A DNA stretch of 64,000 nt from Escherichia phage vB_EcoM_G4498, in the sequence record NC_054918.1. One strand, 5' to 3'. The translations under genes were made by a program, and so were the position numbers. Of the stretch, positions 15,801 through 32,992 are shown in pieces. The notes under the pieces are model-generated. The model saw only the letters and a list, made by a program, of their open reading frames with translations. It was not told the DNA's origin and searched no databases. Each line of letters starts with the position of its first letter. Within the stretch, counting starts at the first letter, position 1.

Positions 15801-16451
15801 TTATTTTTCCTTTCTTATGAAGTTTTCTATCATATGTCTATAGCAGATATTAGGATAACCTGCCTTGACAGCTATTTTATTAAATTTTGTGCGCTTAGGT
15901 CTATTATTATAAACCCATAATTCATAAAGCGCATCATAACTATTCCATATTTCTCCTCGCCTAGGATTTGGTAAACCATATCGAGGTGAATTTTTACCGC
16001 TAAATCTTCCTTTTCGGGCTTTACTCATATTAGCCTTGGCTTCATCGGATATAATTTTACCTTTATGAGCTAGACGCATTTTGGCTTTAGTTTCTTCTGG
16101 GGTCTTTTTGCCTTTAATCCATGACGGCTTGCCATATCTAGGATTATTTTCACCCGAGAAAAGAACAGAGTTTTGGATTTTAAGGGTTTCTATTAATCTA
16201 CTTGTTAATTTAACACCTTTATTATATCGCATTAAATTTACAGCATAATGCAATCCTCTCACATCTGGATATATTTTAGTTAATAATCTATGAGCTATAA
16301 AATGCTCACGCGCAGTTAACTCAACAAGATTGTTTTTGTCATCTGCTCCTCCTATACATCTAGGAATTATATGATGGCGTTCTTTATATCCGCCAAGATG
16401 CCGGCATTTAGCTTTTGTAATTAAAGCCGAGTAAATTTTTTGGTAATTCAC
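15801..16451 (-). CDS. free-standing HNH homing endonuclease (Mob-like), 216 aa, GTG start
   Basis: HHIIPR...NLV.LT.REH HNH core. NUMOD3-like repeats (NNPRYGKP, KNSPRYGLP). GTG at 16449-16451 after AAGGA. Confidence 0.85.
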   Translation of the reverse strand: MNYQKIYSALITKAKCRHLGGYKERHHIIPRCIGGADDKNNLVELTAREHFIAHRLLTKIYPDVRGLHYAVNLMRYNKGVKLTSRLIETLKIQNSVLFSGENNPRYGKPSWIKGKKTPEETKAKMRLAHKGKIISDEAKANMSKARKGRFSGKNSPRYGLPNPRRGEIWNSYDALYELWVYNNRPKRTKFNKIAVKAGYPNICYRHMIENFIRKEK

Positions 16452-16484
16452 ATATATCCTTTCAATTCATGGGTTAGTAGATTA

Positions 16485-16510
16485 ATTATACAATAAATAT
16501 ATAAAGCAAT
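16485..16510 (-). promoter_or_regulatory. MotA-dependent middle promoter upstream of the HNH gene and gene 56
   Basis: Minus strand ATTGCTTTA (perfect MotA box), 11 nt, TATAAT. Confidence 0.6.
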
Positions 16511-16521
16511 AAGGAGGACAT

Positions 16522-16722
16522 ATGGTACAAAAATTAATGGCACTTGTTAATGCCATAAAAGGTAATAAGAAACGTATAGCTTTTACTATTTCTGCTATGG
16601 TAGGAATTTTACTCTGGAACTTTATTTTATCACCTGTTGCAATTGCACATGGTATTAATATTCCAGTAGTTACTCTTGATACATTCGTAGATTTAGCATT
16701 TGCTTTAGTTGGGTTAATTTAA
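16522..16722 (+). CDS. small two-TM membrane protein, 66 aa, plus strand
   Basis: Strong SD AAGGAGG 4 nt before the ATG and phage-like A/T-ending codons. Two hydrophobic segments. The 3-prime end overlaps the gene 61 stop convergently. Confidence 0.45.
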   Translation: MVQKLMALVNAIKGNKKRIAFTISAMVGILLWNFILSPVAIAHGINIPVVTLDTFVDLAFALVGLI

Positions 16723-17747
16723 ATCTTAGCATATTTAGATAGCCGCATTTTAGCCATCAACCCCTGGGCAATATTATTTTTCATATATTCCATAATTTGT
16801 TCAGGGGTTGCACCTTCCTTTCTAATCATATCATTAACATCTTTTGATTTCCAGGGAGATTTATCCCAAAACATAACCCTTTCTCCTACATCAACTAATT
16901 TAGTCATTCGCTTGATAGTGTCAGGGTGACGAGGTTCATTATCTAAAACCCACACTCGTCTATCTTTAAATGGAACAACTTCTAGGTCTAATTGACCACC
17001 CGTAATAGCTATACCATTTTCAATAAAAAGTGAATCTATAGGTCCTTCTAGAACATATACATCACCATCTTTAACTCGTTCAACACCGTAAATTTTTGTT
17101 GCCTCAGGATAAGCTTTAATGGTGATATATTTTTGAGGAGCATCTTTCTTTAATGCACGTCCTTGAAAAGACTCAGCTTTTCCATTAGCATTATAAATTG
17201 GAATAACAAGACGAGGCTCAGAAATTTCCTTTTTGTATGTTCCCGGTGCTATGCTATTAACTAATTTAGGCCATTCGGTTGTAAACCAAAGATATTTCCA
17301 TTTATCCTTTGGAATACAACGAGCTTTTACATATTTTATAATTGGATGGTCTTCCGCCAGTTTATCTAATCTAACACATGACGGAAGAGATTTAATTATT
17401 TTCTTCTCAGGTTGCTTAGGAAGTTCTTTAGGTTTTTCTACTGGACGACTTTTACCTTTTTCTTTTCTTATTTCAAAAATATACTCACGATATAAATCAG
17501 GTTCAAACTCCTTTAAATATATTCCGATTGGTGCATGATAGTTACAGTTATAACAATGAATATTTCCTTCATTATTATCGCCGTAATACCATCCACGGGC
17601 TTTATTTTGGTCGGTTTTTGAATCTCCACAAACAGGGCATCTAAACCGTAATTTAAAAGTTGAACTATTATTTACTTGTGTGAATTTAGGTAAATGAGCT
17701 AGCGCACGGTATGCAAACTCATTATCAATCCAAGGTATTGATGACAT
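16719..17747 (-). CDS. 61: DNA primase gp61, 342 aa
   Basis: Zinc ribbon CPVCGDS...CYNC plus Toprim. Matches T4 gp61. Confidence 0.95.
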   Translation of the reverse strand: MSSIPWIDNEFAYRALAHLPKFTQVNNSSTFKLRFRCPVCGDSKTDQNKARGWYYGDNNEGNIHCYNCNYHAPIGIYLKEFEPDLYREYIFEIRKEKGKSRPVEKPKELPKQPEKKIIKSLPSCVRLDKLAEDHPIIKYVKARCIPKDKWKYLWFTTEWPKLVNSIAPGTYKKEISEPRLVIPIYNANGKAESFQGRALKKDAPQKYITIKAYPEATKIYGVERVKDGDVYVLEGPIDSLFIENGIAITGGQLDLEVVPFKDRRVWVLDNEPRHPDTIKRMTKLVDVGERVMFWDKSPWKSKDVNDMIRKEGATPEQIMEYMKNNIAQGLMAKMRLSKYAKI

Positions 17748-17749
17748 TT

Positions 17750-17914
17750 TTACTCTTCTTTTTCTTTAGATTCCTCTTTTTTCTTTTTAGGAATCTGTTC
17801 AGGACCTTTATTTACTACAGCGCCTGATGCTGTTCCAGTAGAGATATTTTCAGGATTACCACCTGAATCTCCAGCGACCATATCTTCTTTGATAAATTCT
17901 TTATATGTTTTCAT
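17750..17914 (-). CDS. small protein (61.1 position), 54 aa, with a capsid-targeting-like N-terminus (not in the ORF track)
   Basis: My own translation: MKTYKEFIKEDMVAGDSGGNPENISTGTASGAVVNKGPEQIPKKKKEESKEKEE. Fills the gap exactly. Confidence 0.55.
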   Translation of the reverse strand: MKTYKEFIKEDMVAGDSGGNPENISTGTASGAVVNKGPEQIPKKKKEESKEKEE

Positions 17915-17915
17915 A

Positions 17916-18542
17916 TTAACCTCTATTCATAAAAGCATTAAAAATTTGGTCATCAATAGAAACATTCACTTTAGACTGTTTTTCTGATGGTAATTCATAT
18001 CCACATATTACAATTTTATGATCAATATCAAAATACACAGAAGCAATATGATTAATGATGTTTTCAGTAAAGTCTAAATCAACATCAATATCTTTTTGAC
18101 CACAGCCCAAAGGATAAATAATGCGAGTAATTCGATTATCTTTAACAAAGATTCCACCGATATACTCTGTGCTGCGTTCAAAGTCTACACGCCGACGAAA
18201 TGAAAAATATTCAGGCTCTTTATGAGCTCGGCTCATAGGACACAACGAGTAACTAGAATAAGAGATGTCAAATCCTACGCCTTCAATATGAGCCAAATTA
18301 TCATGATTAAACCAATTATAATCGTACGCCAAGTCCATTAGATTATAATATGTGAAAGGCACCGGATTAACATCACTAGTCGCAAGCATGTAATTAGCAA
18401 CTGCTATAATTTCGTTGTTTTTAACGAATACAAACCGCGATTGATGCGAATGACCTGGACCTGCGTTTTCACGATTAATGATATAACACTGGGCACCTTT
18501 ATATTTGTACGTGTCTTTGCACTTGTGCATTTGATAAAGCAT
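17916..18542 (-). CDS. adfA: gp61.2-position protein, 208 aa (family reported as AdfA, anti-DarTG)
   Basis: Position between 61.1 and sp and size. The assignment to the AdfA family is from memory of the literature, not from alignment. Confidence 0.5.
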   Translation of the reverse strand: MLYQMHKCKDTYKYKGAQCYIINRENAGPGHSHQSRFVFVKNNEIIAVANYMLATSDVNPVPFTYYNLMDLAYDYNWFNHDNLAHIEGVGFDISYSSYSLCPMSRAHKEPEYFSFRRRVDFERSTEYIGGIFVKDNRITRIIYPLGCGQKDIDVDLDFTENIINHIASVYFDIDHKIVICGYELPSEKQSKVNVSIDDQIFNAFMNRG

Positions 18543-18835
18543 TATTCACCTACCACTTCAGCGATGATATTTTTATTATTGAAGTTTTTATCACAATACA
18601 GAACGTAATTATACTGCATTACACCACCAGACTTAAGCTGTTTTTGTACTTCAGCTTTCATTTCAGGGCGATCACGCTCAACGATATTCATAATATCTGC
18701 TTCAATCTGAGTTTCAACCTCAGTCTGATCTGCGGTCATAGACCATTCACACAAATCTTTATCATAACCTGCCATAGCAGGCTGAGCAGCACAAGAAGCC
18801 AAAGCAAAAATTGCAGCAAAAACAAATTTTTTCAT
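18542..18835 (-). CDS. sp: Spackle periplasmic superinfection-exclusion protein, 97 aa
   Basis: Signal peptide MKKFVFAAIFALASCAAQPAMA. The sequence matches my memory of T4 Sp. Confidence 0.9.
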   Translation of the reverse strand: MKKFVFAAIFALASCAAQPAMAGYDKDLCEWSMTADQTEVETQIEADIMNIVERDRPEMKAEVQKQLKSGGVMQYNYVLYCDKNFNNKNIIAEVVGE

Positions 18836-18863
18836 GATAATCTCCTCAGTAGTTTATGTTTAT

Positions 18864-18893
18864 ATAGTATCTCAATTTCCAACAAAAGTAAAC
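18864..18893 (-). promoter_or_regulatory. early promoter
   Basis: GTTTAC-N18-TACTAT upstream of sp. Confidence 0.65.
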
Positions 18894-19147
18894 TATTTTA
18901 TTTCCTCAAGTTCGTTAATCAATAAAAGTTCTCTGACGCTAAAAACAAAGAAAAATGTGTTCCCATCAACCAGAGCATGACCGCTAATAGAACACCCTCT
19001 GCGGAATTTAGAAACTTCACAATCTAGAACTGTAAAGGGTTTTAATCCTATGACTTTAGCTATGCGTCTATTCAGTTCACAACCACTTGCGAATTTTTCC
19101 AAATCTTCTTCTGATTTAAACTGATATTCTCTATTAACTAGCATCAT
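18893..19147 (-). CDS. GoF-like small protein, 84 aa
   Basis: VNREYQFKSEEDLEKF...RRIAKVIGLKPFTVLD aligns with [16 protein letters not shown]...[13 protein letters not shown] of the goF product. It has its own early promoter at 19179-19208. Confidence 0.65.
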   Translation of the reverse strand: MMLVNREYQFKSEEDLEKFASGCELNRRIAKVIGLKPFTVLDCEVSKFRRGCSISGHALVDGNTFFFVFSVRELLLINELEEIK

Positions 19148-19178
19148 TTTCTTTTCTCCGCGATTAGCTGATAGAATT

Positions 19179-19208
19179 ACTATAACACAACTCTATCAGC
19201 TTGTAAAC
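19179..19208 (-). promoter_or_regulatory. early promoter
   Basis: GTTTAC-N18-TATAGT upstream of the GoF-like ORF. Near-duplicate of 19667-19696. Confidence 0.65.
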
Positions 19209-19210
19209 TA

Positions 19211-19453
19211 CTATTTTACTAGCATCAATAACTGTTTCTCTAACTTGACGATTTTACGAAAGTATCTTTTGCATTGGCGAATCTGCCGCTTCGTAGGGCG
19301 CACAGCAAACTTAATAAATTCAACTCGACCAAATGGAGGACTTTCTTCTGCTGGAATATCTAACACCAATTCCCACGTATCTGCAATAAGTGCTTTGAAT
19401 TGAGTATTTTTCCTGACATTATACGGAGTAGGTTTAAATAAAACAATGTGCAT
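19211..19453 (-). CDS. small basic protein, 80 aa, translationally coupled to dmd (61.4/TifA-position candidate)
   Basis: ATG at 19451-19453 after GAGGA, 1 nt past the dmd stop. Basic C-terminus RPTKRQIRQCKRYFRKIVK. Confidence 0.55.
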   Translation of the reverse strand: MHIVLFKPTPYNVRKNTQFKALIADTWELVLDIPAEESPPFGRVEFIKFAVRPTKRQIRQCKRYFRKIVKLEKQLLMLVK

Positions 19454-19454
19454 A

Positions 19455-19637
19455 TTATCCTCGGCAATCCACTTCGCATACTTTCTTGTCATCAATGAAA
19501 GCTTTAACTAATGCTTTATTAACTTCAGCATATTGAGTAGTAGCCCATTGAACGTCGTCTTTCATCATTGTGATTTCTTTAGTAAACATGCTTTCATTCT
19601 TAAACCACCCCATAAAAACTACCTTTACCAATTCCAT
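19455..19637 (-). CDS. dmd: Dmd antitoxin (inhibitor of RnlA/LsoA), 60 aa
   Basis: MELVKVVFMGWFKNESMFTKEITMMKDDVQW... matches T4 Dmd in size and position. Confidence 0.85.
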   Translation of the reverse strand: MELVKVVFMGWFKNESMFTKEITMMKDDVQWATTQYAEVNKALVKAFIDDKKVCEVDCRG

Positions 19638-19666
19638 AACAATCTCCTCATTTAACCAACAAGACT

Positions 19667-19696
19667 ACTATACCATAGTCCTGTCAGCTTGTAAAC
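19667..19696 (-). promoter_or_regulatory. early promoter
   Basis: GTTTAC-N18-TATAGT upstream of dmd. Confidence 0.65.
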
Positions 19697-21123
19697 TAAA
19701 ATTTTAATTCATTTGCCAAAGCATCTAACTGGGCTCGAGTAGATTCGTTTCTTTGATAGCGATTCTGCTCAGCCTGAATCTGCTGTGAACCTGCTACTTC
19801 GTTAACTTCAGTTGGAGTAGAATCTTGCTCAATTTCTACCCATTTTTGATTTCCTTTTTGAACACCCATCAAAAACTTATTCCATTTATTCTTATCACCA
19901 TATCGTGATTTGATTTGCTTAATGAGTTGTTGTTCAGCAGCTGCTAACTCCTCGGTTTCAATGACCGCAAGCATAAAATCAGCTGTTGCTGGAAGACCAG
20001 CAGATTCTGCAATATCGCTCATGTTAACATCAGAAGAATCCCAAGCTTGTTTACCAACCTGCGCTGCAGTCCAAAGAACAGTTTCGGTTTCAACAGCCAG
20101 AGCACGCAATTCCTCTGCAATAGCTTTAACAGTTGTGTAACTATTTTCTGAATAAACTCTAATGCGGCAAGATTTACAAATACCTAGATAGTCGACAATA
20201 ATGATTGTTGGAACAAAATTCTTCTTGAGCTTCAATTCGTTTAAAAGTGATCGAAATGTATTAGCATCTGCTCCACCGGTAGGATACTGTTTAACGATTA
20301 AACGACCGAGAGTAGATTTCTCACGCCATTTTTCCATTTTTCCTTTATACTCAGCGTAAGAAATATGCCCATCATCAATGTCATCAAGAGAAACATCAAG
20401 CATATTAGCATCAATACGCTTAGCACAGACTTCTTCTGCCATTTCCATGGAAATGTAAAGAACGTTATGACCAAGCTGCAAATAATCTGCTGCCAATGAA
20501 CACAATCCTAATGACTTACCAACGTTAACGCCAGCCATTAAAACGTTCAGTGTTCCAGTCTCAGCTCCGCCTTTAGTAATTTTGTTTAGAATTCTGAGTT
20601 TAAATGGAACCTTACGAGCTTTATTCATATAAGATAGCCAACGCGCTTCGTAGTCATCCATCCAGTCATGACCAACGTAGCTATCAAATGAAATTGATAA
20701 TGCTTGCCGCATGATGTCAGGAATAGCACCAACATCCGGCATTTTCTTATTTCGTTTTTCCGGAGGAAGCTCAGCATTAGTTTGAATTTCGATTATTTTA
20801 GACGTAGCATTAAACATCGCCCTTTGCTGAACATATTTTTCTGTTTCTTTTACTAACCAGCTGTGGTCTTCCGGAGAATCAGCCAGTTTTGAAATAAGTG
20901 TTTTTACACCAGAATATTCTGTTTCAGTAAATGAACTATTTTCTAATGCAACATTTAACGCATTAATAGATGGAACGCTATGATACTCATTAACATGAGA
21001 TTTAATTAATTTGAATGTATTTTTAGCTGGACCACTTTCAAAATATTCTGAATCCATATATGGCCAAACTTTTGAAAAATAAGCTTGATCAAATATGAGA
21101 TGAGAAAGAATAATTTCTACCAC
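19696..21123 (-). CDS. 41: replicative DNA helicase gp41, 475 aa
   Basis: DnaB-family Walker A GVNVGKS. Matches T4 gp41. Confidence 0.95.
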   Translation of the reverse strand: MVEIILSHLIFDQAYFSKVWPYMDSEYFESGPAKNTFKLIKSHVNEYHSVPSINALNVALENSSFTETEYSGVKTLISKLADSPEDHSWLVKETEKYVQQRAMFNATSKIIEIQTNAELPPEKRNKKMPDVGAIPDIMRQALSISFDSYVGHDWMDDYEARWLSYMNKARKVPFKLRILNKITKGGAETGTLNVLMAGVNVGKSLGLCSLAADYLQLGHNVLYISMEMAEEVCAKRIDANMLDVSLDDIDDGHISYAEYKGKMEKWREKSTLGRLIVKQYPTGGADANTFRSLLNELKLKKNFVPTIIIVDYLGICKSCRIRVYSENSYTTVKAIAEELRALAVETETVLWTAAQVGKQAWDSSDVNMSDIAESAGLPATADFMLAVIETEELAAAEQQLIKQIKSRYGDKNKWNKFLMGVQKGNQKWVEIEQDSTPTEVNEVAGSQQIQAEQNRYQRNESTRAQLDALANELKF

Positions 21124-21132
21124 ACTTACTCC

Positions 21133-21483
21133 TTAAAAGAATTTAAATTTTTTCTTTGACCTTTTATTAAATGCATCTTGTAGTTGCATTGTAATACATT
21201 TTTCTACATGAGGAGCTAACTCAGCTTTTCTTTCTTGGTCAAGAACAGCAAAGTCCATTACAACCTTTCCATCAACCCAATCCAGTTTAGTTACATACAC
21301 TATATGTGTAGAACCATCTTCTAGTTTAATGACAATCTCCTGGATAACATTTTCCATAGCGGATTTAATTATCTTAAGAGACTCATTAAAAAGACGTTCT
21401 TTTCTTTCTTCTTCCCCCTCCGAAGAGGGGGATTCATCGATAATTTCTAGATCTAAATCTAAATCTAAATCATCTTTATTCAT
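21133..21483 (-). CDS. 40: gp40 head-vertex assembly chaperone, 116 aa
   Basis: Position between uvsX and 41. The ATG at 21481-21483 overlaps the last uvsX codons. Confidence 0.7.
   Translation of the reverse strand: MNKDDLDLDLDLEIIDESPSSEGEEERKERLFNESLKIIKSAMENVIQEIVIKLEDGSTHIVYVTKLDWVDGKVVMDFAVLDQERKAELAPHVEKCITMQLQDAFNKRSKKKFKFF
21414..21431 (-). other. 7-bp GC-rich UUCG hairpin inside the gene 40 coding sequence
   Basis: Minus strand CCCCCUC-UUCG-GAGGGGG, encoding SPSSEGE, about 45 nt downstream of the uvsX stop. Confidence 0.6.
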
Positions 21484-22737: not shown

Positions 22738-23578
22738 AATCAACTGCTATTGGATGAATAGCATTAAACTTATGAAATGCTTCTGATTTTTCTTTACGCG
22801 AAACGCACATGCGAAGAACCTTTAATGGCTCGTCTTCTTCACCCAACGATTTTCGTTTTTCAATATTAGAAGTTTTCCAACGAGCTTGCTCTGGAAACTC
22901 TCTATTGATTTGCTCAAGCGCTCTATTATGTTTAGAATTACTACGAATTGAACTGCACCCTCCAGGAGCTTGTGCTTTTCCAGATACAACCAGATATTTG
23001 AACAAGGCCAAATGCGGATAACCTTGATTAATTAAATTGAGAAATGCATACATATCTTCGCACAAATCAATTTTTCCATACCCAATTTGTTCTGTCGTAA
23101 GTTTTCCAAGGTCATACCATGTATTCGTGAATCCATATGAATTTTCACGATAATTACCCCAAGATGAAGTAATTTTAAAAATTGGTAGGCGAGCATGACC
23201 GTGATAATACCCACAATCCATGGCATCTTCGACGTATTGAATCAATTCATAGAACTGTTCACGAGTCAATTGATTGACTTTATCCACACAACGACGATCA
23301 TCTCTTTTTCGCATTGAACTCATACGAATAGTAGTATCATCGTCAATCATCCAGATTCGTTGACCTGCATACATATCAGTAATTGCTTTACGAGTACCGG
23401 CAATTCCATTAACATCATCAGGAATAGTTACAATTTTAGCTTTAGACCCATAGGCATCATAATAAGCTTTTTCTTCATGTTCACGTACTACGATATGAGG
23501 TTCATAATCAGTCGGAAACATATCAAGGGCAGAAACTGCCCCTACACGTTGATAGCTCGGAATTACGAATTGAATCAT
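22736..23578 (-). CDS. GT-A-like glycosyltransferase, probable beta-1,6-glucosyl-HMC-alpha-glucose transferase (beta-alpha-gt) of T2/T6 type, 280 aa
   Basis: DxD motif IWMIDDDTTI. Sits where T4 has beta-gt but is unrelated to my memory of the T4 beta-gt sequence. Confidence 0.65.
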   Translation of the reverse strand: MIQFVIPSYQRVGAVSALDMFPTDYEPHIVVREHEEKAYYDAYGSKAKIVTIPDDVNGIAGTRKAITDMYAGQRIWMIDDDTTIRMSSMRKRDDRRCVDKVNQLTREQFYELIQYVEDAMDCGYYHGHARLPIFKITSSWGNYRENSYGFTNTWYDLGKLTTEQIGYGKIDLCEDMYAFLNLINQGYPHLALFKYLVVSGKAQAPGGCSSIRSNSKHNRALEQINREFPEQARWKTSNIEKRKSLGEEDEPLKVLRMCVSRKEKSEAFHKFNAIHPIAVD

Positions 23579-24216
23579 TTAAGTGCCTTACATTTGTCAA
23601 AATGGTATCTTGTCATATTTGGCCCACGTCCTTTTAGTCCGCAATGCGGACATATTTTTTCTATCAAATTATGAGGTTTTCCTTTACGATTTTTAGACAT
23701 CGTTTCTTTAATTATTTTAGCTTTTTCTACGCCAAAAATTTCTTCATAAGTTTTACCAGAATTTTCCTTGGCTCGATTTATAATTCCATATGCCTGCTCA
23801 TTTTTACCATACATTGGATTACCTTCGCCTTTCATTCTTTTAGAATGATCAGGACGCTTGATTCCACGAAAGGCATTTCCGCACTTATATCTTTCTTCTG
23901 GAGATAGTTTTTTACCGTACATTCCATTTAATTTGCCTGGAAAACTTCCTCCCCATGCTTCATTCTTTAAATTATATGAATCCGGACAATTAGCAGCATC
24001 TAAACAAGTTAAAATAATTTCTTCAACCTGTCTAAACATTGGTCCTTCATATAATATTTCTTTATTAAAGGATTTTATTCCATATTTCTTTTTAGCATGT
24101 TGCCAAACTACACCCGAACCATCATAATTCGGGTTGTGACCATCATGACTTCCTATATACCACTTTTTAGTTTTAGGATGTTTATACTTATAAACATGCG
24201 GCACATTTACTTCCAT
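23575..24216 (-). CDS. free-standing GIY-YIG (Seg-like) homing endonuclease, 213 aa
   Basis: VYKYKH-x6-KWYIGS GIY-YIG motif. NUMOD3-like repeats. C-terminal CPHCG...NMTRYHFDKC zinc finger. Confidence 0.8.
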   Translation of the reverse strand: MEVNVPHVYKYKHPKTKKWYIGSHDGHNPNYDGSGVVWQHAKKKYGIKSFNKEILYEGPMFRQVEEIILTCLDAANCPDSYNLKNEAWGGSFPGKLNGMYGKKLSPEERYKCGNAFRGIKRPDHSKRMKGEGNPMYGKNEQAYGIINRAKENSGKTYEEIFGVEKAKIIKETMSKNRKGKPHNLIEKICPHCGLKGRGPNMTRYHFDKCKALK

Positions 24217-24947
24217 TTTCCAGTATAATCCTTTTTAGCAATATGAGTCTCACCGGTGTTCCACCAATGGTCAACTAAATAAAACTGATTTTCGTACACA
24301 TGAAGACTTCCAACGTTCCATATAATAGAACCTGCTTTATATTGCCGCGATGGGTCGCCTGCATTCAAATCAGATACTAATTTATCTAGTACGTATTTTT
24401 GCCAAGCATAATCATTACGATAGCCTGCCCAGCAATCATTGCTTCTCATGCTAACAACCGCATTGACTTTCTTATCACGAATCAGGTACTGTACTGTATT
24501 AGTACACATGAAATCTGACATACCATCTTTATTGTAGTCAAATTGCATGGATGGACGAGTATAAATCATGATACCACGCCGAGAATCAGGATTTTGACCA
24601 AGTTCAGCTAAACACATATCATACTGGGCATAGTTATCTTCTGACCAAATAGCCCAACCATAATTCGAGTTAATTTCGCCTTTAGAAGATGCTACCTGCT
24701 GCCAAATCTTTGGTGTTTCACCTGGAATATCTTTAACAAACAAGCTCTTAGATTTATACCATTCAAGTTCACGCTGAATGTATTCATCATTAAGAGCGCC
24801 AAAAATAAACGGTTCATCTGCTACAAATGATGCGCCAATAATTTCAATAGTTTTAACACCAGTTTTATCAACTACGAAATCTTTTTCTTTTAATGCAAGC
24901 CCCAAATGAAGACGGATTTCTTCAACTGTCATAGAGTCACTAATCAT
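24207..24947 (-). CDS. 42: dCMP hydroxymethylase gp42, 246 aa
   Basis: Thymidylate-synthase-like sequence. Matches T4 gp42 in size and position. Confidence 0.95.
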   Translation of the reverse strand: MISDSMTVEEIRLHLGLALKEKDFVVDKTGVKTIEIIGASFVADEPFIFGALNDEYIQRELEWYKSKSLFVKDIPGETPKIWQQVASSKGEINSNYGWAIWSEDNYAQYDMCLAELGQNPDSRRGIMIYTRPSMQFDYNKDGMSDFMCTNTVQYLIRDKKVNAVVSMRSNDCWAGYRNDYAWQKYVLDKLVSDLNAGDPSRQYKAGSIIWNVGSLHVYENQFYLVDHWWNTGETHIAKKDYTGKWK

Positions 24948-25740: not shown

Positions 25741-25750
25741 AATAATTTCC

Positions 25751-26140: not shown

Positions 26141-26158
26141 AGGGACCCGGAGGTCCCT
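26141..26158 (-). terminator. terminator hairpin after gene 43
   Basis: AGGGACC-UCCG-GGUCCCU followed by UUUUC. Confidence 0.7.
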
Positions 26159-26170
26159 AGATTTATTCTA

Positions 26171-28867
26171 TCAGCCAAACAGGAAGTCTAACGAAGCTTT
26201 TTCTTCATAGTCCATACCAGCCGATTCACACATGCCCGCAAGCGGTTTAACAAACGATTTTTGGAACAAAGTTGAGTAGTCAATCCAAGACAGTACGTCA
26301 GAACGAATTTCTTTTGGAAGTTCTGTACCCGACGGCCAAGCAATGCATTTGTCACCAAATGGATTTCCTTCACGCAATGGAAGAACCATTACTTTATTTC
26401 CATCCAAAATTGGAGCTACACCTAAACCGCTAACAGCTCGACGATAAGTTAGCACACCACGAATATGGAACGGACATTTAAATCCTGGCCAACCTTTATC
26501 ATCATATTTCGCTATATCGTTCGCAGTTTTTACTTCAGCAATAACTTTATAGTCAAGTTGACGATATTCTTTCTCGAAGTTCTTGTAATATTCTTGGACA
26601 GACTCTTCACCTTCCTGAAGAATACGACGAATACTTTCTTCGAGAGCTTCTTGGACCGCTTTAGGCGTTGAACTTTGCTGAGTTTCCATACCCATGATTT
26701 TTAGATGCGGTTCAGCAAATCGCTTATCTTCCATATCATAAACGTTCAGAGCATAACGCTTTTTCGCTTTCCAAAATCCACCAACACCCTTTGAACCAAG
26801 TGGAGGGCAAGAAATAGCTTCACGGTCCATATGCATCAGATGCTCGCGGTTATTCATATAATCACATAACTCACGATATGCAACATCAATCATAGGTTCC
26901 ATCTTTTTCTTACCGAACTGATTCATGAATTCAACTAAATCGTTCTGCTCTTTGAATCGGTCAAGACCAACTTTTTCAATAACTTTATCTACACAAACAT
27001 ATACCGAATCAGTATCACCTGCTGCGATGAAATCTTCACCATTAGTTCCGCATACTTTATTCAGATATTCATTAATTTTACGAGCAATCCACTGAATACC
27101 GACTTGGCCGAAAATTGTGATAGCAGTAGCATTTCGCAGATCATAATAACGGAAATGAATATTACCAAGAGCACCATAAAGACTATTAATGAGAATTTTA
27201 CGGTTCAGCTGATTTGTGTTAGCAAGTGTAGCTGCTTTTTCACATTCTTCAATCAAACTATTGAGAACAGATTCAGTATAATTCGATAGTTCATTTAAGA
27301 AATCATCACTGAACTTAACATATCGTTCAACTTCAGGTTTAGTTGAACAAGACCCTGCGCCTTTCATAATAATCTTTTTAATAGCTTCGGCATTCATTTC
27401 TTCAGCGAACATTTTCTTTTTCCAATCTTTACGCTGGAAAAATACTTTAGCGATTTCCTTTGGAATGATACCTTCTTGATGCTTATCATACATCCATCCA
27501 TTCGGAGAACAAGAATATTCATCACTTGGTTTAGGAGCTGTTCCTGCGATATATTCATGAATTGGATGAACTTTAAACTGTCCACGAATAGTCTCAGGAC
27601 TAATGTTAACCTGACGAATAATGCTCGGATACAGAGACGTCAAGTCAAAACTCATAATATATCGACGAGCAATTGGTTTAGGTTCAAACACAAATGCACC
27701 CGGAAAACTCTGTTTAACGTGCGAACCTTGTTGAGGAATAACCTTGTGTTCACCTTTCAATGAGTTAAAAATAATAGCATCCCAAGTTTTAATAGGACTC
27801 ATTACACCAGAAAAAGGCATTTTAGCGTAATAAGACATACTTAAAACTAGATCGATAAACCCGCGAATTTTATCAATTGCTTGAACTGATTCTACGTCAA
27901 TGATGTTATAACTAATGTATCGTTGATGATTAGTCTCACGAAGTTTATTAATAGGACCGTCGTATGGTAATTTACCTTTTTTGGTTTCATGTTGAGCAAC
28001 TGATTCCAAAGAGAATGACGGCAAATTAGTAAAAGCGAATTTCTTGTACAAATCTAAATAATCAAGAATAGATACGCCATCAATAGAATAAATTTCTTTG
28101 CTACCGTACATATTTTGAATTAGTTTAGATTTTACTCGACCGATTGGAGAGAAGCGTTTCATACTGCGTTCACCTAGAATCATTTTAACACGATTCATGA
28201 TATACGGAACGTCAAACCCCTCAATATTCCAACCAGTAAAAATAGCAGGTCGTTTCTGTTCCCAGAGATTAATATATTCCATGAGCATATCACGCTCATT
28301 ATCGAATGGCATATAAATTACTCGGTCAAGAATTTCTTGAGGAACTTCATCACCACCTTCACAGTCAAGCTTAGCAGCTAACTTTGCATCCCATTTTGAT
28401 ACTGAACCGTACATTGAATTCAAAAGGTCGAAAACATAAAAACGGTCATCAATTGAATCGTAATGAGTGATAGCATCAATTTCATATTCAGCTTTCATTG
28501 GGTCAGGAAATTTATCACCAGTAACCTCAATGTCGCAGTTAGCTACACGAACAAATTTTCGGTCATAAACAATTTCTGAACCATACGTATCACTGATATA
28601 AGCGAGTTTAAAATCGTTCATACCGAGAGCTTCGAGACCGATGTCTTCCATTCGTTTCATCCAATCTCGAGCATCTTTCATTGATGGAAATTTTTGAGGA
28701 GCACAGTTTTTACCATAGATGTCTTTGTACTTTGACTCTTCCTTACAATGTCTAAACATAGTTGGAAGATATTCTACTTCACGAGTACGTTCCTTTCCGT
28801 TTTCATCAATATAACGTTCAACAATGTTATTTCCGACTGTTTCGATAGAGATATAAAATTCTTTCAT
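26171..28867 (-). CDS. 43: DNA polymerase gp43 (family B), 898 aa
   Basis: Exo and Pol motifs (DIE, SLYPS, YGDTDS-like AAGDTDS). Length matches T4 gp43. Confidence 0.97.
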   Translation of the reverse strand: MKEFYISIETVGNNIVERYIDENGKERTREVEYLPTMFRHCKEESKYKDIYGKNCAPQKFPSMKDARDWMKRMEDIGLEALGMNDFKLAYISDTYGSEIVYDRKFVRVANCDIEVTGDKFPDPMKAEYEIDAITHYDSIDDRFYVFDLLNSMYGSVSKWDAKLAAKLDCEGGDEVPQEILDRVIYMPFDNERDMLMEYINLWEQKRPAIFTGWNIEGFDVPYIMNRVKMILGERSMKRFSPIGRVKSKLIQNMYGSKEIYSIDGVSILDYLDLYKKFAFTNLPSFSLESVAQHETKKGKLPYDGPINKLRETNHQRYISYNIIDVESVQAIDKIRGFIDLVLSMSYYAKMPFSGVMSPIKTWDAIIFNSLKGEHKVIPQQGSHVKQSFPGAFVFEPKPIARRYIMSFDLTSLYPSIIRQVNISPETIRGQFKVHPIHEYIAGTAPKPSDEYSCSPNGWMYDKHQEGIIPKEIAKVFFQRKDWKKKMFAEEMNAEAIKKIIMKGAGSCSTKPEVERYVKFSDDFLNELSNYTESVLNSLIEECEKAATLANTNQLNRKILINSLYGALGNIHFRYYDLRNATAITIFGQVGIQWIARKINEYLNKVCGTNGEDFIAAGDTDSVYVCVDKVIEKVGLDRFKEQNDLVEFMNQFGKKKMEPMIDVAYRELCDYMNNREHLMHMDREAISCPPLGSKGVGGFWKAKKRYALNVYDMEDKRFAEPHLKIMGMETQQSSTPKAVQEALEESIRRILQEGEESVQEYYKNFEKEYRQLDYKVIAEVKTANDIAKYDDKGWPGFKCPFHIRGVLTYRRAVSGLGVAPILDGNKVMVLPLREGNPFGDKCIAWPSGTELPKEIRSDVLSWIDYSTLFQKSFVKPLAGMCESAGMDYEEKASLDFLFG

Positions 28868-28903
28868 AGATATTCCTTAGTTTATAGCCCGAGTTATTAG
28901 GCT
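28865..28903 (-). promoter_or_regulatory. gene 43 translational operator (gp43 autoregulation hairpin plus SD and ATG)
   Basis: Minus strand AGCCU-AAUAACUC-GGGCU hairpin (28886-28903), followed by AAGGA and the ATG. The 8-nt loop AAUAACUC is the classic T4 operator loop. Confidence 0.8.
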
Positions 28904-28925
28904 CTTGATATATTATACTCCAAAT

Positions 28926-28943
28926 AAGGGGCCGAAGCCCCTT
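28926..28943 (-). terminator. UUCG hairpin after regA
   Basis: AAGGGGC-UUCG-GCCCCUU. Confidence 0.65.
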
Positions 28944-28945
28944 GC

Positions 28946-29314
28946 TTAATTACCAATCGTATATTTAGGAACGAGTTTCCATTCATGTTTTTGTTTAAAA
29001 GAAATAACTCGGAAGTTATTAGTTAAATCTTTCATAAAAGTTCTTTGACCAGGAACGATTTCAATCAGTCCCCAATCTTCTAATAGCCATGCAATCGAAT
29101 CACGACGAACTTCATCTTCTTCTGTCATTTCAACTTGGCGACCATCCATACGAAGCATTTCTTTAAAATGAACGATATAGTATAGTCCTTTTTTCTGAAG
29201 AATATGACAGGACTGATACAGAACTTTATCTTTATTATTAGCAATTCCCATACGAGTCAAAGTTTCTTTTACTTTCAGAAAATCTTCAGGTTTTTTAAGA
29301 GTAATTTCAATCAT
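28946..29314 (-). CDS. regA: RegA translational repressor, 122 aa
   Basis: MIEITLKKPEDFLKVKETLTRMGIANNKDKVLYQSCHILQKKGLYYIVHFKEM... matches T4 RegA. Confidence 0.95.
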   Translation of the reverse strand: MIEITLKKPEDFLKVKETLTRMGIANNKDKVLYQSCHILQKKGLYYIVHFKEMLRMDGRQVEMTEEDEVRRDSIAWLLEDWGLIEIVPGQRTFMKDLTNNFRVISFKQKHEWKLVPKYTIGN

Positions 29315-29315
29315 T

Positions 29316-29879
29316 TTACCATTCCAATGCTAGTTTTTTGAGTTGTTTCTGTTCTTTTACGTTCTTAGTCACTTCTTTCAAAAAATCATCCGTGACTAAA
29401 CCTTTTAGTTCTTTTAATACTAAAGGAAGTTTTCCATTTTTAGTAAGAATTGATTTATAGTTAATTGCATCATTTGTATTAACTTGATACCGCTTAGCAA
29501 GTAACCTAATAATCAATACTTCGGTGGAATCTTCAACCAGTTTTGCCCATTTACCATATCTTTTACCACGAGGAACTGCAGCCATTAGATAATTAAAATG
29601 AGCTTCATCACTTAAACCTGATCCAATTAAATTCATAGCATATACAGCTGGCATGCACTCTGGAAATTGTGATAATGCATTTTCAACCATGAATTTTGAA
29701 TAATCTTTTTGAGCAATAGAGCATTTAGTTTTATTATTAATAGCTCCAATTATTTCAAAAAACTCATTTTCAGCTTTTTCTTTAAAAGAATCAGCAGCGG
29801 ATTGGACAGCTGTCCAATCTTTTGAATACCAAGCAACTTGATGCTCGTTTAATTGAATATCATCTTCAAATAAGCTCAT
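29316..29879 (-). CDS. 62: clamp-loader small subunit gp62, 187 aa
   Basis: Start at [22 protein letters not shown] (ATG 29877-29879), as in T4. Confidence 0.9.
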
Positions 29880-29880
29880 A

Positions 29881-30840
29881 TCACTTCCACTGCATTTCAC
29901 ATGCTAATTGAATGAAAAGATAAGCTAAATGCAATTCAGTATTAGCTGCAATTCCATGATACTGATTATTTTCACCAACAATTTCGTACATACGAATAAT
30001 ACTTTGTGGAGTTACGCGTGAATAGATTTCTTCGGCAAGTTTACCCACGAACCACGAATAATCAGCCGCATATTTTGGTGCTAAAGCTCTGAGTTGTTTA
30101 ACATCTTTATTTTTGAGAGACTCAAGAACATCATCAATAGCACCACGATCGTTAGTAACCAGTGATAAAATACCAGCATCCAAAACACCTTTAGATGAAT
30201 AACTATCGAGCTCGCCAATAGTTTTACGAAAATCAGGAAAATTCTTTTTAACCAAAGCTGCTACAACTTTCATATCAGCTATAGCAATTCCTTCATGCTT
30301 GCAGATTTCAGTCAATCGACGAATCATCTGCTTCATCATTTCAATTTTATCTTCATCAGTTGGTTGACCGAATGTAATAACTCGGCAGCGTGACTGAAGC
30401 GGTTTAATAATACCATCAATATTGTTAGCAGTAATAATAATACTACAGTTTGAACTATAAGCTTCCATAAAGGAACGAAGATGTCGCTGAGACTCTGCTA
30501 GCCCTGAACGGTCAAATTCATCAATAACGATTACTTTTTGACGACCATCAAATGAAGCGGCACTGGCAAAATTAGTCAAAGGACCACGAACGAAATCAAT
30601 TTTACAATCTGATCCATTCACAAACATCATATCAGCATTTACATCATGACACAATGCTTTTGCTACAGTTGTTTTACCTGTTCCTGGAGAAGGAGAATGA
30701 AGAATAATATGTGGAATCTTACCTTTACTTGTAATAGATTTAAAGGTTTCTTTATCAAAGGCGGGAAGAATACATTCATCGATAGTAGATGGACGATATT
30801 TCTGTTCAAGAATGTGTTCTTTTTCATTTACTGTAATCAT
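29881..30840 (-). CDS. 44: clamp-loader ATPase gp44, 319 aa
   Basis: Walker A SPGTGKTT. Start at [17 protein letters not shown] (ATG 30838-30840) after GAGG. Confidence 0.95.
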
Positions 30841-30853
30841 AATTTCCTCATTC
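30826..30853 (-). promoter_or_regulatory. probable RegA-binding translation-initiation region of gene 44
   Basis: Minus strand GAAUGAGGAAAUUAUGAUUACUGUAAAUG matches my memory of the gene 44 RegA operator. Confidence 0.5.
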
Positions 30854-30874
30854 AAGTTTTAGTGTAAATTATAA

Positions 30875-30888
30875 AGGGCCGAAGCCCT
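30875..30888 (-). terminator. UUCG hairpin after gene 45
   Basis: AGGGC-UUCG-GCCCU followed by UUAUAAU. Confidence 0.6.
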
Positions 30889-30891
30889 CTA

Positions 30892-31578
30892 TTAAAAATC
30901 GTGGGTAGAATCAGCTTCAAGAGCTACTACATAATTCGCGTGTTCACCTTCAAATTTAGCAGCGCCTTGTTTACCTTTTGCCCAGAGCAGAAGTTTATAA
31001 TTTCCTGGTTGCATTTTCATATTTGCCATATTGATAATGAAATTAAATGTATTTTCACCATCATAATCACCAAGAGTCAAAGAATATTTAACACGGGTCA
31101 GAGCAGAATCTTCTACTTTATTAAAACCGTTAATTACGATTTTACCTTCTTTTACCGTGATAGCAATTGTATCAATTTGCAGACCACGAGATACACGCAA
31201 CAGTTGTTGAAGGTCTTCAGCTTTAATTTCAGTAACAACAGATGCTACCGGGAATGGAATTGGTTTATTAGGAGCAACTACTGTACTCGGATCGGCTGCT
31301 GGCCAAAAAATTGTTGAACGAGCATCAGCAATTTTAATATTTCCATCTTCTGACTGGGAAATTTCTGCATCATCATTAACTAGCGACAGAATACCGAGAA
31401 AACCGTTCAAATCGTAAATTGCTACATCAAAATCAATAACGTCAGAAATATTTGCTTCCGCATAAGTTGTACCATTAACTGCGCGAGTCATAATAAATTG
31501 ACCGGATTTAAGCATAATACCGGAGTTAATAGTAGCGAAATTTTTAAGCAGAGCAGTAGTATCTTTAGACAGTTTCAT
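30892..31578 (-). CDS. 45: sliding clamp gp45, 228 aa
   Basis: MKLSKDTTALLKNFATINSGIMLKSGQFIMTRAVNGTTYAEANISD... matches T4 gp45. Confidence 0.95.
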   Translation of the reverse strand: MKLSKDTTALLKNFATINSGIMLKSGQFIMTRAVNGTTYAEANISDVIDFDVAIYDLNGFLGILSLVNDDAEISQSEDGNIKIADARSTIFWPAADPSTVVAPNKPIPFPVASVVTEIKAEDLQQLLRVSRGLQIDTIAITVKEGKIVINGFNKVEDSALTRVKYSLTLGDYDGENTFNFIINMANMKMQPGNYKLLLWAKGKQGAAKFEGEHANYVVALEADSTHDF

Positions 31579-31609
31579 GTAATTTCCTTCAATTCAAATG
31601 AGATTTAAT

Positions 31610-31634
31610 TTTATAACTAATTTAATAAAGCAAT
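31610..31634 (-). promoter_or_regulatory. probable middle promoter for gene 45
   Basis: ATTGCTTTA (perfect MotA box, overlapping the rpbA stop), 10 nt, TATAAA. Confidence 0.5.
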
Positions 31635-32023
31635 TAACGATTAAAATCAGCCGCAATTGTTTCCGCAACAATTTGAGCAGCAACAATTAGACGTTCATCT
31701 GCATTACCACAATAATCATCTTCAAGGCGTTCACCACATGAAGTCATAATAAATTTAGCACCGGCGTTTAGGGATTCTGTAGTATGTTTGCGCATTAGTT
31801 CAATCCATTTATTACTTACTTCACGATCGATAGCTTCATAATACGCATGACGAGCAGGTGCAGATTTAATTTTGTTCTGAATAACTTCCATTGCGTTATC
31901 AGAAAGAGACAAAACCCATGCTCGACGAATTTTATTTTGGTTTTGTGGATTTGATTCAGAACGCACGTGTTTTGGCTGAATATCTTTTACGTCAACAGTA
32001 TAATTCACAGTAATTTTAGTCAT
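31634..32023 (-). CDS. rpbA: RpbA RNA-polymerase-binding protein, 129 aa
   Basis: Size and position after 45 match T4 rpbA. Confidence 0.8.
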
Positions 32024-32032
32024 AATACACCT

Positions 32033-32224
32033 TTAGTCATAATAATCAGTAACAGTCCAAGCTTCATTTCTATTGGACATTATTTTTGTATATTCTGCTT
32101 TAAATGCATTCCTAAGCATAGATTCAGTAACTATATGCTCTTCATTAGAAAAATTATTTCTCAGAATATATCGTTTTATTTCAGGAATAGTTAATAGATG
32201 CTGTCCAGTTGAATATTCTGCCAC
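32033..32224 (-). CDS. small hypothetical protein (45.1/45.2 position), 63 aa, GTG start
   Basis: GTG at 32222-32224 lies 4 nt after GGAGG. Confidence 0.55.
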   Translation of the reverse strand: MAEYSTGQHLLTIPEIKRYILRNNFSNEEHIVTESMLRNAFKAEYTKIMSNRNEAWTVTDYYD

Positions 32225-32234
32225 AGTTCCTCCG

Positions 32235-32242
32235 TATAAATA
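32235..32242 (+). promoter_or_regulatory. late promoter TATAAATA for the plus-strand HNH endonuclease gene
   Basis: Exact TATAAATA on the plus strand, 34 nt before the ATG at 32276. Confidence 0.7.
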
Positions 32243-32275
32243 TGTTTATCACTCGCTGTATCAAAAGGATATGTT

Positions 32276-32992
32276 ATGAATTATAAACTAATTTATGAAA
32301 AGTTAATCTCTAATGCTAAATCTCGAAAACTTGATTGCTATACTGAATCTCATCACATTATACCACGCTGTTTAAACGGTAGTGATGATGCTTCAAACTT
32401 AGTAGATTTAACGCCAGAAGAGCACTATGTAGCTCATCAACTTTTAGTAAAAATTTATCCTTCTGAACCAAAATTAGTCTATGCTGCTAACATGATGACA
32501 GTTTCCACGAAATACGCTAAACGCAACAATAAAACTTTCGGTTGGATTCGTCGTAAACTCTGGGAAATAGAAAAGAACAAAGAATTCTCCCAGGAGACAC
32601 GAAAGAAAATGTCTGATGCAGTAGCTAATAAAGCAAGACTAACTTGTCCTCATTGCGGTAAGTCTGGATTAAGCGGGAATATGAATCGTTGGCATTTTGA
32701 TAACTGTCCAAATCACCCTAATCCTAAAGTTAGACCACCATTGTCTAAAGAACACAGAAATAATATCTCAAACGGGCTTAAAGCAATCGTTCTTGAAGAA
32801 ACATCCTGCGAATTCTGTGGAATGATAGGCAAGAAATGCGTTATCGCAGCGCATAGAAATTTCTGCAAGAAAAATCCAAATGGACGCAAGAAAACTGAAA
32901 AGACTGGTACTTGCGTCCATTGTGGTAAAGTTACCACTTTCGGAAATTTATCAAGATGGCATAATGATAACTGTAAATATAAACCTAGCTAA
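32276..32992 (+). CDS. free-standing HNH homing endonuclease with three C-terminal zinc-finger repeats, 238 aa, plus strand
   Basis: The N-terminus is paralogous to the 15801-16451 product (MNY..IY..LI..AK.R.L..Y.E.HHIIPRC..G.DD..NLV.LT.(R/E)EH). Exact late promoter TATAAATA at 32235-32242 and an AAGGA SD. Confidence 0.85.
   Translation: MNYKLIYEKLISNAKSRKLDCYTESHHIIPRCLNGSDDASNLVDLTPEEHYVAHQLLVKIYPSEPKLVYAANMMTVSTKYAKRNNKTFGWIRRKLWEIEKNKEFSQETRKKMSDAVANKARLTCPHCGKSGLSGNMNRWHFDNCPNHPNPKVRPPLSKEHRNNISNGLKAIVLEETSCEFCGMIGKKCVIAAHRNFCKKNPNGRKKTEKTGTCVHCGKVTTFGNLSRWHNDNCKYKPS

Follow-up and report, generated by a model that had tools for sequence, protein, structure and literature searches.

Free-Standing Homing Endonuclease Genes in the Analysed Stretch

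The window analysed here is a stretch of 64,000 nucleotides (sequence record NC_054918.1) that represents the first ~64 kb of Escherichia phage vB_EcoM_G4498, a T2/T6-like Tequatrovirus. It contains three genes, designated HNH216, GIY213 and HNH238, which very probably are three independent free-standing homing endonuclease genes, two of the Mob type with an HNH nuclease and one of the Seg type with a GIY-YIG nuclease, that is, of kinds long known from T4. The HNH216 gene (15801..16451, minus strand; 216 amino acids (aa), GTG start) is located between gene 56 and gene 61, and the GIY213 gene (23575..24216, minus strand; 213 aa) between gene 42 and the beta-alpha-glucosyltransferase gene. The HNH238 gene (32276..32992, plus strand; 238 aa), which encodes an HNH endonuclease with three C2HC fingers, sits between 45.2 and 46, in antisense orientation with respect to all neighbouring genes. 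A sequence-only reading of this DNA had placed three open reading frames (ORFs) at these positions; all of them were found there, together with every peptide that it had quoted.

The three ORFs are intact and retain their catalytic residues. Their products fell into PHROG families annotated as 'homing endonuclease' (PHROG 655 for HNH216, E = 1.3e-59, and HNH238, E = 9e-69; PHROG 314 for GIY213, E = 2.3e-31), with reciprocal cross-matches through their DNA-binding regions. In BLASTP comparisons, HNH216 matched T4 MobD end to end (35% identity, E = 2e-34), while its N-terminus was closest to that of RB3 MobE (E = 2e-29). The N-terminus of HNH238 matched T4 MobB (44% identity, E = 8e-29) and MobD (E = 1e-22), and the N-terminal homology of the HNH proteins to MobB, MobC, MobD and MobE ranged from E = 2e-34 to 5e-17. 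The N-terminus of GIY213 was 38-44% identical to those of T4 SegA and SegB (E ~ 4e-10). Both HNH proteins carry the residues H26, H27, N41 and H50 of an HNH (beta-beta-alpha-Me) nuclease; among 39 homologues of HNH238, N41, H50 and H54 were invariant, and H26 and H27 were at least 90% conserved. The four positions H26/H27/N41/H50 align with H26/H27/N39/H48 of I-TevIII, the mutation of which abolished cleavage (PMC1865063). Likewise, the residues Y20, G22, E65 and N82 of the GIY-YIG domain of GIY213 were invariant in 18 homologues.

About 500 Tequatrovirus genomes matched positions 15000-33500 at 95-99% identity in a megablast search. The gene order in the window is T4-like from rIIA onward, and a 280-aa beta-glucosyl-HMC-alpha-glucosyltransferase (22736-23578) replaces T4 beta-gt, which marks the phage as T2/T6-like. 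Phage wV7 is empty at all three sites; relative to empty alleles, HNH216, GIY213 and HNH238 appear as clean insertions of 651, 632 and 714 bp, respectively. The three genes show a presence/absence polymorphism, with an occupancy of only ~4-15% of related genomes (~30-60 occupied of 650-760 related records for HNH216 and HNH238). Each of the three genes occurs at 95-100% identity in 57-76 public phage genomes, where it is often annotated as a homing endonuclease, and near-identical copies with this annotation have been public since RB32. No record in a collection of 50,697 genomes exceeded 95% query coverage, so the three genes were not found together there. The pairs were: GIY213 and HNH238 in G28 and LF73P1, HNH216 and HNH238 in JE01, and HNH216 and GIY213 in ELT1 and WL-3. 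A tblastn search with eleven T4 and RB3 Seg, Mob and I-Tev proteins found no further endonuclease genes in the window.

HNH216 between Genes 56 and 61

The HNH catalytic module of HNH216 (aa 1-60; 16272..16451, minus strand) contains H26, H27, N41 and H50 and aligns with those of HNH238 and T4 MobB, MobC and MobD. The NUMOD3 repeats that had been noticed in the protein by eye (NNPRYGKP and KNSPRYGLP; aa 100-162, 15966..16154, minus strand) were recognised by Pfam PF07460 in two stretches, at 29.3 bits against a gathering cut-off of 20.4. The last ~85 residues are SegA-like and constitute a second cross-family module, which the sequence-only reading had overlooked: residues 131-214 of T4 SegA, a GIY-YIG enzyme, matched residues 126-211 of HNH216 (BLASTP E = 3e-8), and the MobD alignment also reaches residue 211. 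This region includes a predicted helix-turn-helix (HTH)-like DNA-binding module (aa 168-211; 15819..15950, minus strand) common to MobD and SegA.

Compared with the empty wV7 allele, HNH216 is an exact 651-bp insertion, placed between the ribosome-binding site of gene 56 and its ATG. The ribosome-binding region that now precedes this ATG (GAAAGGAAAAATAAC; 15800..15814, minus strand) is recreated by the last codons of HNH216 (AGA AAG GAA AAA TAA), and an imperfect direct repeat of it (TTGAAAGGATATAT; 16452-16465, minus strand) precedes the GTG of HNH216 and serves this gene. The repeat was identified by aligning alleles with and without the endonuclease gene. Upstream of both genes there is a putative T4 middle promoter (16485..16510, minus strand), which consists of a MotA box (ATTGCTTTA; 16502-16510), an 11-nt spacer and the -10 sequence TATAAT (16485-16490), as judged by the middle-promoter (MotA) consensus. 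Since the MotA-box/-10 pair is kept in empty alleles, it appears to be the resident gene 56 promoter, and HNH216 is probably co-transcribed with gene 56.

Three alleles of the 56/61 site were found among relatives: the empty one (1,816 bp), the one with HNH216 (2,467 bp), and the one with dam, with or without an extra ORF (2,640-3,245 bp; T4, T2, G28). A single event in which HNH216 displaced dam is not supported, as the HNH216 allele differs from the empty one by precisely the added 651 bp. No dam methyltransferase gene was found at this site or elsewhere in the 64 kb.

The first 36 nt of gene 56 (15764..15799, minus strand) are only 75% identical to those of wV7. The corresponding start of gene 56 in Klebsiella Jiaodavirus phages is the same as this patch in 34 of 36 nt, with the two mismatches at the inner edge, and beyond the patch the sequence in the window is of the Tequatrovirus type. 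HNH216 itself is 90% identical to the copy in the Klebsiella Jiaodavirus 5N, whereas the flanking genes of the two phages agree less well, with 74% identity for gene 56 and 65% for gene 61. Judged from these comparisons, the patch seems to be a scar that co-conversion left in a transfer between genera.

Other features of this site are as follows. A conserved hydrophobic ORF of 66 aa (16522-16722, plus strand; phrog_2024) with a strong AAGGAGG ribosome-binding site lies between the gene 56 promoter region and gene 61; it is annotated in wV7, Sf23 and G28, and unannotated in the T4 reference record, though the DNA is conserved there. Gene 56 as a whole (15281-15799 in the window, 16270-16785 in T4) is only ~75% identical to that of T4, as compared with ~97% for the neighbouring genes. 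It is the known target of T4 SegF, and segF is absent from the window, as in T2-type phages. The Klebsiella phage vB_KpnM_5N has a second annotated homing endonuclease gene directly upstream of gene 61, at a site that is unoccupied in the window.

GIY213 between Gene 42 and the Glucosyltransferase Gene

The GIY-YIG catalytic domain of GIY213 comprises aa 1-90 (23947..24216, minus strand), including Y20, G22, E65 and N82. In an AlphaFold2 (AF2) model with a predicted local distance difference test (pLDDT) score of 82.2 overall, this domain adopts a beta-beta-alpha-beta-alpha fold with values mostly above 90. The NUMOD3-like repeats ascribed to this protein earlier (NGMYGKK and GNPMYGKN; 23797..23937, minus strand) are present as peptides, but their Pfam match stays just under the cut-off (18.0 bits, E = 0.0027, cut-off 20.4). 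The region is backed by a PHROG 655 cross-match (residues 87-210, E = 1.2e-8) and by a BLASTP match to the NUMOD3 region of HNH216 (E = 0.002). The protein ends in a single C2HC finger (CPHCGLKGRGPNMTRYHFDKC; 23590..23652, minus strand), predicted by AF2 to form a beta-beta-alpha unit at residues 186-212.

The insertion measures 632 bp relative to wV7 and T6. GIY213, from its ATG on, shares 10 nt with the end of gene 42, and its TGA and the glucosyltransferase ATG overlap as ATGA, which reproduces the junction of the empty allele. The adjoining last ~270 nt of gene 42 (24207..24476, minus strand) are divergent: they are 65-85% identical to wV7, as compared with 97-100% for the rest of the gene. 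The boundary is sharp at the codon level, as it is in gene 46: codons 157-246 contain 28 synonymous and 12 non-synonymous differences, and codons 1-156 only 5 and 0, respectively. The divergent allele is at least 95% identical in 81 records, as compared with 76 records that carry GIY213, and most other records are 80-90% identical; here and at gene 46, this is a comparison of record counts and not a record-by-record match of tract and gene.

HNH238 between Genes 45.2 and 46

The AF2 model of HNH238 (pLDDT 91.5) has the expected nuclease fold, and its three fingers are predicted as beta-beta-alpha units: finger 1 (CPHCGKSGLSGNMNRWHFDNC; 32645..32707, plus strand) at residues 121-143, finger 2 (CEFCGMIGKKCVIAAHRNFC; 32807..32866, plus strand) at residues 175-196, and finger 3 (CVHCGKVTTFGNLSRWHNDNC; 32912..32974, plus strand) at residues 210-232. 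The sequence-only reading had described three copies of one finger motif. Fingers 1 and 3 fit this description, apart from the spacing after CxxCG, which is x6 and not x7. The middle finger does not fit: it is degenerate (CX2C-X11-HX3C), is devoid of the N-M-x-R-W sequence, and resembles finger 1 of I-TevIII (CDFCGHIGKGPGFYLKHNDRC). A NUMOD3 match in HNH238 remained below the Pfam cut-off (12.4 bits, cut-off 20.4).

The allele with HNH238 is 714 bp longer than the empty allele of T4, T2 and wV7, and the insertion replaced the ~55-bp spacer between 45.2 and 46. HNH238 and the 3' end of gene 46 have 8 nt in common, and both neighbours are altered: gp46 ends in ...RFSLAKIS* instead of ...RFTVMV*, and 45.2 starts with GTG plus an Ala codon instead of ATG. 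A divergent tract with 63-90% identity to wV7 occupies the last ~200 nt of gene 46 (32985..33190, minus strand); beyond it, the identity is 98-100%. This allele is at least 90% identical in 58 records, as compared with 58-63 carrying HNH238, and most others are below 90%.

A putative T4 late promoter, the perfect octamer TATAAATA (32235..32242, plus strand), is located 34 nt upstream of the HNH238 ATG, and an AAGGA ribosome-binding site (32264-32268, plus strand) can be read between them. The octamer was assigned by the late-promoter consensus. It is under-represented in the window, with 4 copies in 64 kb (4899, 15243, 32235 and 57661) versus 10.8 +/- 3.2 expected, and three of the four lie ~25-35 nt upstream of ORF starts, namely those of soc and rI.1/rI, which are late genes, and of HNH238. 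The fourth copy (4899-4906, plus strand) is antisense within a 123-aa ORF (phrog_622) that is absent from T4. Scans for sigma-70 promoters and terminators around two of the three genes gave results at chance level.

In Cronobacter, Enterobacter and Klebsiella phages, which belong to several further T4-like genera, relatives of HNH238 with three fingers and 36-60% protein identity are annotated next to the homologue of gene 46 or as overlapping with it (e.g., 36215-36583 in NC_048645.1). From this, the endonuclease lineage seems to have been associated with the site for a long time.

Signs of Mobility

Intronless homing has been described for the pairs SegF/gene 56, SegG/gene 32, SegA/uvsX and MobE/nrdB (PMC2988022). 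In a mixed infection, each of the three enzymes would nick or cut the homologous region of a phage without the gene, probably within the adjacent conserved gene, and recombinational repair from the endonuclease-carrying genome would copy in the gene with its flanking tract. HNH216 would probably act at the start of gene 56 or at its ribosome-binding site, and GIY213 in the 3' part of gene 42; for HNH238, the candidate targets are the 45.2/46 spacer and the 3' end of gene 46. The one-sided, sharply bounded divergent tracts in genes 56, 42 and 46 may be read as an indirect signature of this process, and so may the record counts of the tracts in genes 42 and 46, which follow those of GIY213 and HNH238. 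As far as can be told from the sequence, the three genes would be expressed in different ways: HNH216 from the resident gene 56 middle promoter, with the gene 56 ribosome-binding site recreated; GIY213 as a gene wedged into the operon of gene 42 and the beta-alpha-glucosyltransferase gene by overlapping stop and start codons; and HNH238 antisense, from its own late promoter. Neighbouring-gene targets, middle and late promoters, overlapping start and stop codons, and DNA-binding domains arranged like beads on a string are all among the features listed in a review of the T4 endonucleases (PMC2988022).

Several observations weigh against reading the three genes as active homing endonuclease genes. 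The Pfam HNH model scored only 18.8 and 14.8 bits on the two HNH proteins (cut-off 21.4); on GIY213, the TIGR01453 model scored 24 bits (cut-off 56, E = 3.3e-5), and Pfam PF01541 gave no match. Because these models fail their cut-offs, the family assignment is based on PHROGs, pairwise BLASTP and conserved residues. GIY213 has one finger, as compared with two to four in its closest relatives, and I-TevIII needs both of its fingers; on account of this single finger, GIY213 could be a weakened enzyme. The gene 56 patch occurs also in genomes without HNH216 (Sf23 and Klebsiella phage Shark_ER15), so that we rejected the altered 5' end of gene 56 as a strict mark of HNH216 carriers; either the gene was lost from those genomes or the patch is older than the gene. 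The promoters were assigned by eye, from matches to a consensus. Finally, no paper on these three endonucleases was found, and their activity, cleavage sites and homing are predictions.

Could the genes be decaying or domesticated remnants, no longer mobile, and kept for the signals that their neighbours need or only as DNA-binding regulators? Several points speak for this: the 3' end of HNH216 supplies the gene 56 ribosome-binding site, HNH238 rewrote the gp46 C-terminus and the 45.2 start, so that its clean deletion would be costly, and GIY213 has fewer fingers than its relatives. According to the review of the T4 endonucleases, embedded signals favour retention, and I-TevI doubles as a repressor (PMC2988022). 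However, such a reading is at odds with the intactness of all three ORFs and their catalytic residues, and with the 95-100% identity of the copies in dozens of genomes that have otherwise diverged. Moreover, HNH216 has passed between genera and yet is much better conserved than the sequences that flank it, and the occupancy of the sites is patchy and combinatorial, as active elements should show. We therefore consider decay or domestication quite unlikely.

Read as mobile homing endonuclease genes, the three carry little weight as a discovery. They are three more members of known families and are present, with annotation, in many public T-even genomes; the genes as such, the families they belong to, the finger and the idea of modular shuffling had all been known before. 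Their modest, practical value lies in the well-defined empty alleles and the sharply bounded tracts in genes 56, 42 and 46, which narrow the likely targets and lead to specific, testable predictions, and, in the case of HNH216, in a clear cross-genus transfer between Escherichia and Klebsiella phages. This makes them convenient cases for mapping the targets of Mob and Seg enzymes, most of which are uncharacterised, and suitable also for studying how I-TevIII-type fingers read DNA. T4 had been proposed as the source of cognate endonuclease-free alleles for all three sites. As it carries dam at the 56/61 site and an unrelated beta-gt beside gene 42, it can serve in this way only at 45.2/46.

Two Nuclease Folds with a Common Set of DNA-Binding Modules

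The two HNH proteins had been said to share their N-terminal catalytic module, and BLASTP bears this out: the two aligned over residues 1-164 and 1-151 (E = 3e-30), with the first 60 residues nearly collinear. The claim that two catalytic folds are combined in one genome with a common set of DNA-binding modules also held, with a Mob-type HNH and a Seg-type GIY-YIG fold and modules that match across them. Our results support the view that both folds draw their DNA-binding parts from one pool, made up of NUMOD3, a C-terminal HTH-like module and C2HC fingers. HNH216 combines the HNH module with NUMOD3 repeats and the C-terminal HTH-like module, which is the architecture of MobD; GIY213, the GIY-YIG domain with NUMOD3-like helices and one C2HC finger; and HNH238, the HNH module with three C2HC fingers. 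Such a beads-on-a-string design is established knowledge for these enzymes (PMC2988022, PMC1865063, PMC1564403).

As the three genes are confined to a stretch of 17 kb in one genome, and as T4-like phages recombine avidly, one might suspect that the modules were swapped recently among them. This is very improbable. The DNA of the fingers is only 52-62% identical between the genes and that of the HNH module 60%, with a longest common exact word of 10-14 nt, and each gene has the same architecture in phages without the other two (e.g., G28, fPS-2 and RB32). With shared modules only ~60% identical in DNA, the shuffling must be ancient and not local; judged by these identities, module sharing is a matter of ancient family history and not of recombination inside this genome.

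The C2HC Finger and Its Family

The ligand spacing of the fingers is CX2C-X12-HX3C in three of the four window fingers and X11 in the middle finger of HNH238, which corresponds to the I-TevIII type. A motif CX2CX12-13HX3C was defined in I-TevIII by Robbins et al., with about one zinc per finger; Cys mutants of this enzyme lost DNA binding and cleavage, its fingers also act in dimerisation, and the authors explicitly discussed how catalytic and DNA-binding modules have been shuffled between GIY-YIG and HNH enzymes (PMC1865063). Fingers 2-3 of HNH238 matched the two fingers of RB3 I-TevIII (CDFCGHIGKGPGFYLKHNDRC and CPYCDKKDLSPSTYKRWHGDNC) with E = 9e-7 by BLASTP, and a second BLASTP match to the I-TevIII fingers had E = 5e-5. 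That the same finger ends GIY213, as had been supposed from the letters, proved right: the C-terminal finger of GIY213 matched finger 1 of HNH238 with E = 5e-9 and finger 3 with E = 5e-4. In a six-frame scan, the pattern C..C-x(8-14)-H-x3-C occurred only four times in the 64 kb, each time inside GIY213 or HNH238.

An exhaustive HMMER search with the finger region yielded at least 1,048 cluster representatives (clusters at 50% identity) at E <= 1e-3. Among the best 150 representatives, the N-terminus was a Seg/I-Tev-like GIY-YIG in 48 and an HNH in 45, the HNH being of the Mob type in 40 and of the I-TevIII type in 5; GIY-YIG-like motifs can be seen in many of the other 57. A Pfam census of the finger proteins returned NUMOD3 (40), GIY-YIG (20), SegE_GIY-YIG (18), HNH (9) and HNH_3 (6). 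The copy of Pfam searched held no dedicated model for the finger, which gave only scattered sub-threshold zinc-ribbon matches. The spacing across the family was X12 in 387 cases, X13 in 67 and X11 in 12. The consensus of 386 fingers reads (V/I/L)-T-C-P-H-C-G-K-x-G-x3-N-M-K-R-W-H-F-D-N-C-K, with conservation at the non-ligand positions P2, H3, G5, K6, G8, M13, R15, W/Y16, F18, D19 and N20.

The ligand spacing equals that of classical C2H2 fingers. A Foldseek search of the PDB with the HNH238 model gave no match at E <= 0.001, the weak top ones being C2H2 arrays (CTCF, ZFAT, BCL11A) and HNH domains, and a sequence search of PDB chains with HNH238 and GIY213 found nothing meaningful. Owing to this weakness of the structural matches, the likeness to classical zinc fingers is founded on the ligand spacing and the predicted beta-beta-alpha units.

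A chance or convergent Cys/His pattern, conceivable because short Cys-rich motifs recur easily and because the finger is recognised by no Pfam model, is hardly credible, and refuted as far as sequence statistics can do so, by the pairwise E value between GIY213 and HNH238, the conserved non-ligand positions, the size of the family, the same predicted beta-beta-alpha unit in both proteins, and the confinement of the pattern in the window to these two genes. The finger is thus homologous between the proteins, and T4 lacks all three insertions; what the sequence-only reading had observed is confirmed by these results, and its interpretation is supported.

A further thought is speculative, and we give it only a small chance: the CX2C-X12-HX3C finger might define a very large family, uncurated as far as could be found, with up to 8-9 fingers per protein, in which tandem arrays of classical beta-beta-alpha geometry are fused to GIY-YIG or HNH nucleases. 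If so, such proteins would be natural 'zinc-finger nucleases' of phages, and finger-by-finger DNA recognition might be decoded from the many pairs of insertion site and target in T4-like genomes. The three genes described here would then be entry points, each with a defined empty allele and a sharply bounded tract that narrows its target.

Comparison with T4 and Other Known Systems

The homologous region of T4 contains seven endonuclease genes, mobA (with the gene 60 insertion), segF, segA, mobB, mobC, I-TevII (with the nrdD intron) and mobD. The window lacks all seven, and T4 in turn lacks the three genes of the window. The sequence-only reading had named mobA, segF, mobC and mobD correctly; it omitted segA, mobB and I-TevII, and wrongly included I-TevIII, which is located in nrdB, outside this region. 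Its statement that the T4 sites are empty is right as regards the endonucleases and wrong as regards the mobD site, which holds three other ORFs (54001-55547, minus strand): one for a 153-aa membrane protein (phrog_944) and two for tandem paralogues of 173 and 184 aa (both phrog_1502, function unknown). In T4, topoisomerase gene 39 is split into 39 and 60 by an insertion that comprises the gene 60 translational-bypass element, 60.1 and mobA; this insertion is missing here (2782-2847 in the window, 2793-3911 in T4), and the gene of the large topoisomerase subunit appears unsplit in the window. The nrdD gene is intronless, with neither a group I intron nor I-TevII (43303-43306 versus 44814-45850 in T4), and mobC is missing between nrdG and nrdD (42007-42027 versus 42916-43518 in T4).

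HNH216 and HNH238 share with T4 MobB, MobC, MobD and MobE the N-terminal module MNY..IY...HHI.P....DD..NLV.LT..EH..AH.LL.KIY, and HNH216 shares with MobD also the NUMOD3-rich middle and the C-terminal HTH-like module. As the T4 Mob genes, both are intergenic and free-standing, and none of the three genes of the window is inside an intron. The sites differ, being nrdC.11/mobD.1, alpha-gt/alpha-gt.2, nrdG/nrdD and nrdA/nrdB for the Mob genes, and 56/61 and 45.2/46 for the HNH genes in the window. Unlike the Mob proteins, HNH238 has three C2HC fingers in place of the Mob C-terminal region. Its gene is antisense to its neighbours, which in T4 is the case only for segD (PMC2988022).

GIY213 resembles T4 SegA and SegB in that its GIY-YIG domain is followed by NUMOD3-type helices, and, like several T4 endonuclease genes, it is wedged between its neighbours with overlapping stop and start codons (PMC2988022). 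In contrast to SegA, which ends in the HTH-like module, it ends in a C2HC finger, and its site, between gene 42 and the beta-alpha-glucosyltransferase gene in phages with a T6-type glucosyltransferase, is not that of SegA or SegB. The name 'SegD' given to it in one public record is that record's label only.

The concept of small DNA-binding modules (NUMODs) common to GIY-YIG and HNH homing endonucleases was introduced earlier (Sitbon and Pietrokovski 2003, cited in PMC1564403). Of this set, NUMOD3 is present in the window, whereas the C2HC finger is matched neither by NUMOD3 nor by any other Pfam model searched. RB3 I-TevIII has the same type of finger as HNH238 and the same order, with the HNH nuclease first and the fingers C-terminal. 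It differs from the free-standing proteins of the window in being encoded within the nrdB group I intron and in having an HNH subtype other than the Mob module, and from GIY213 in that the latter joins the finger to a GIY-YIG domain. The overall plan of GIY213 is also like that of I-TevI from the td intron, in which a GIY-YIG domain is followed by a linker and then by small modules for DNA binding, a zinc finger and a NUMOD3-type helix among them (PMC2988022). However, the finger of I-TevI is a four-Cys finger that lies in the linker and acts as a distance ruler, not as a DNA binder, whereas that of GIY213 is a terminal C2HC finger of the I-TevIII type.

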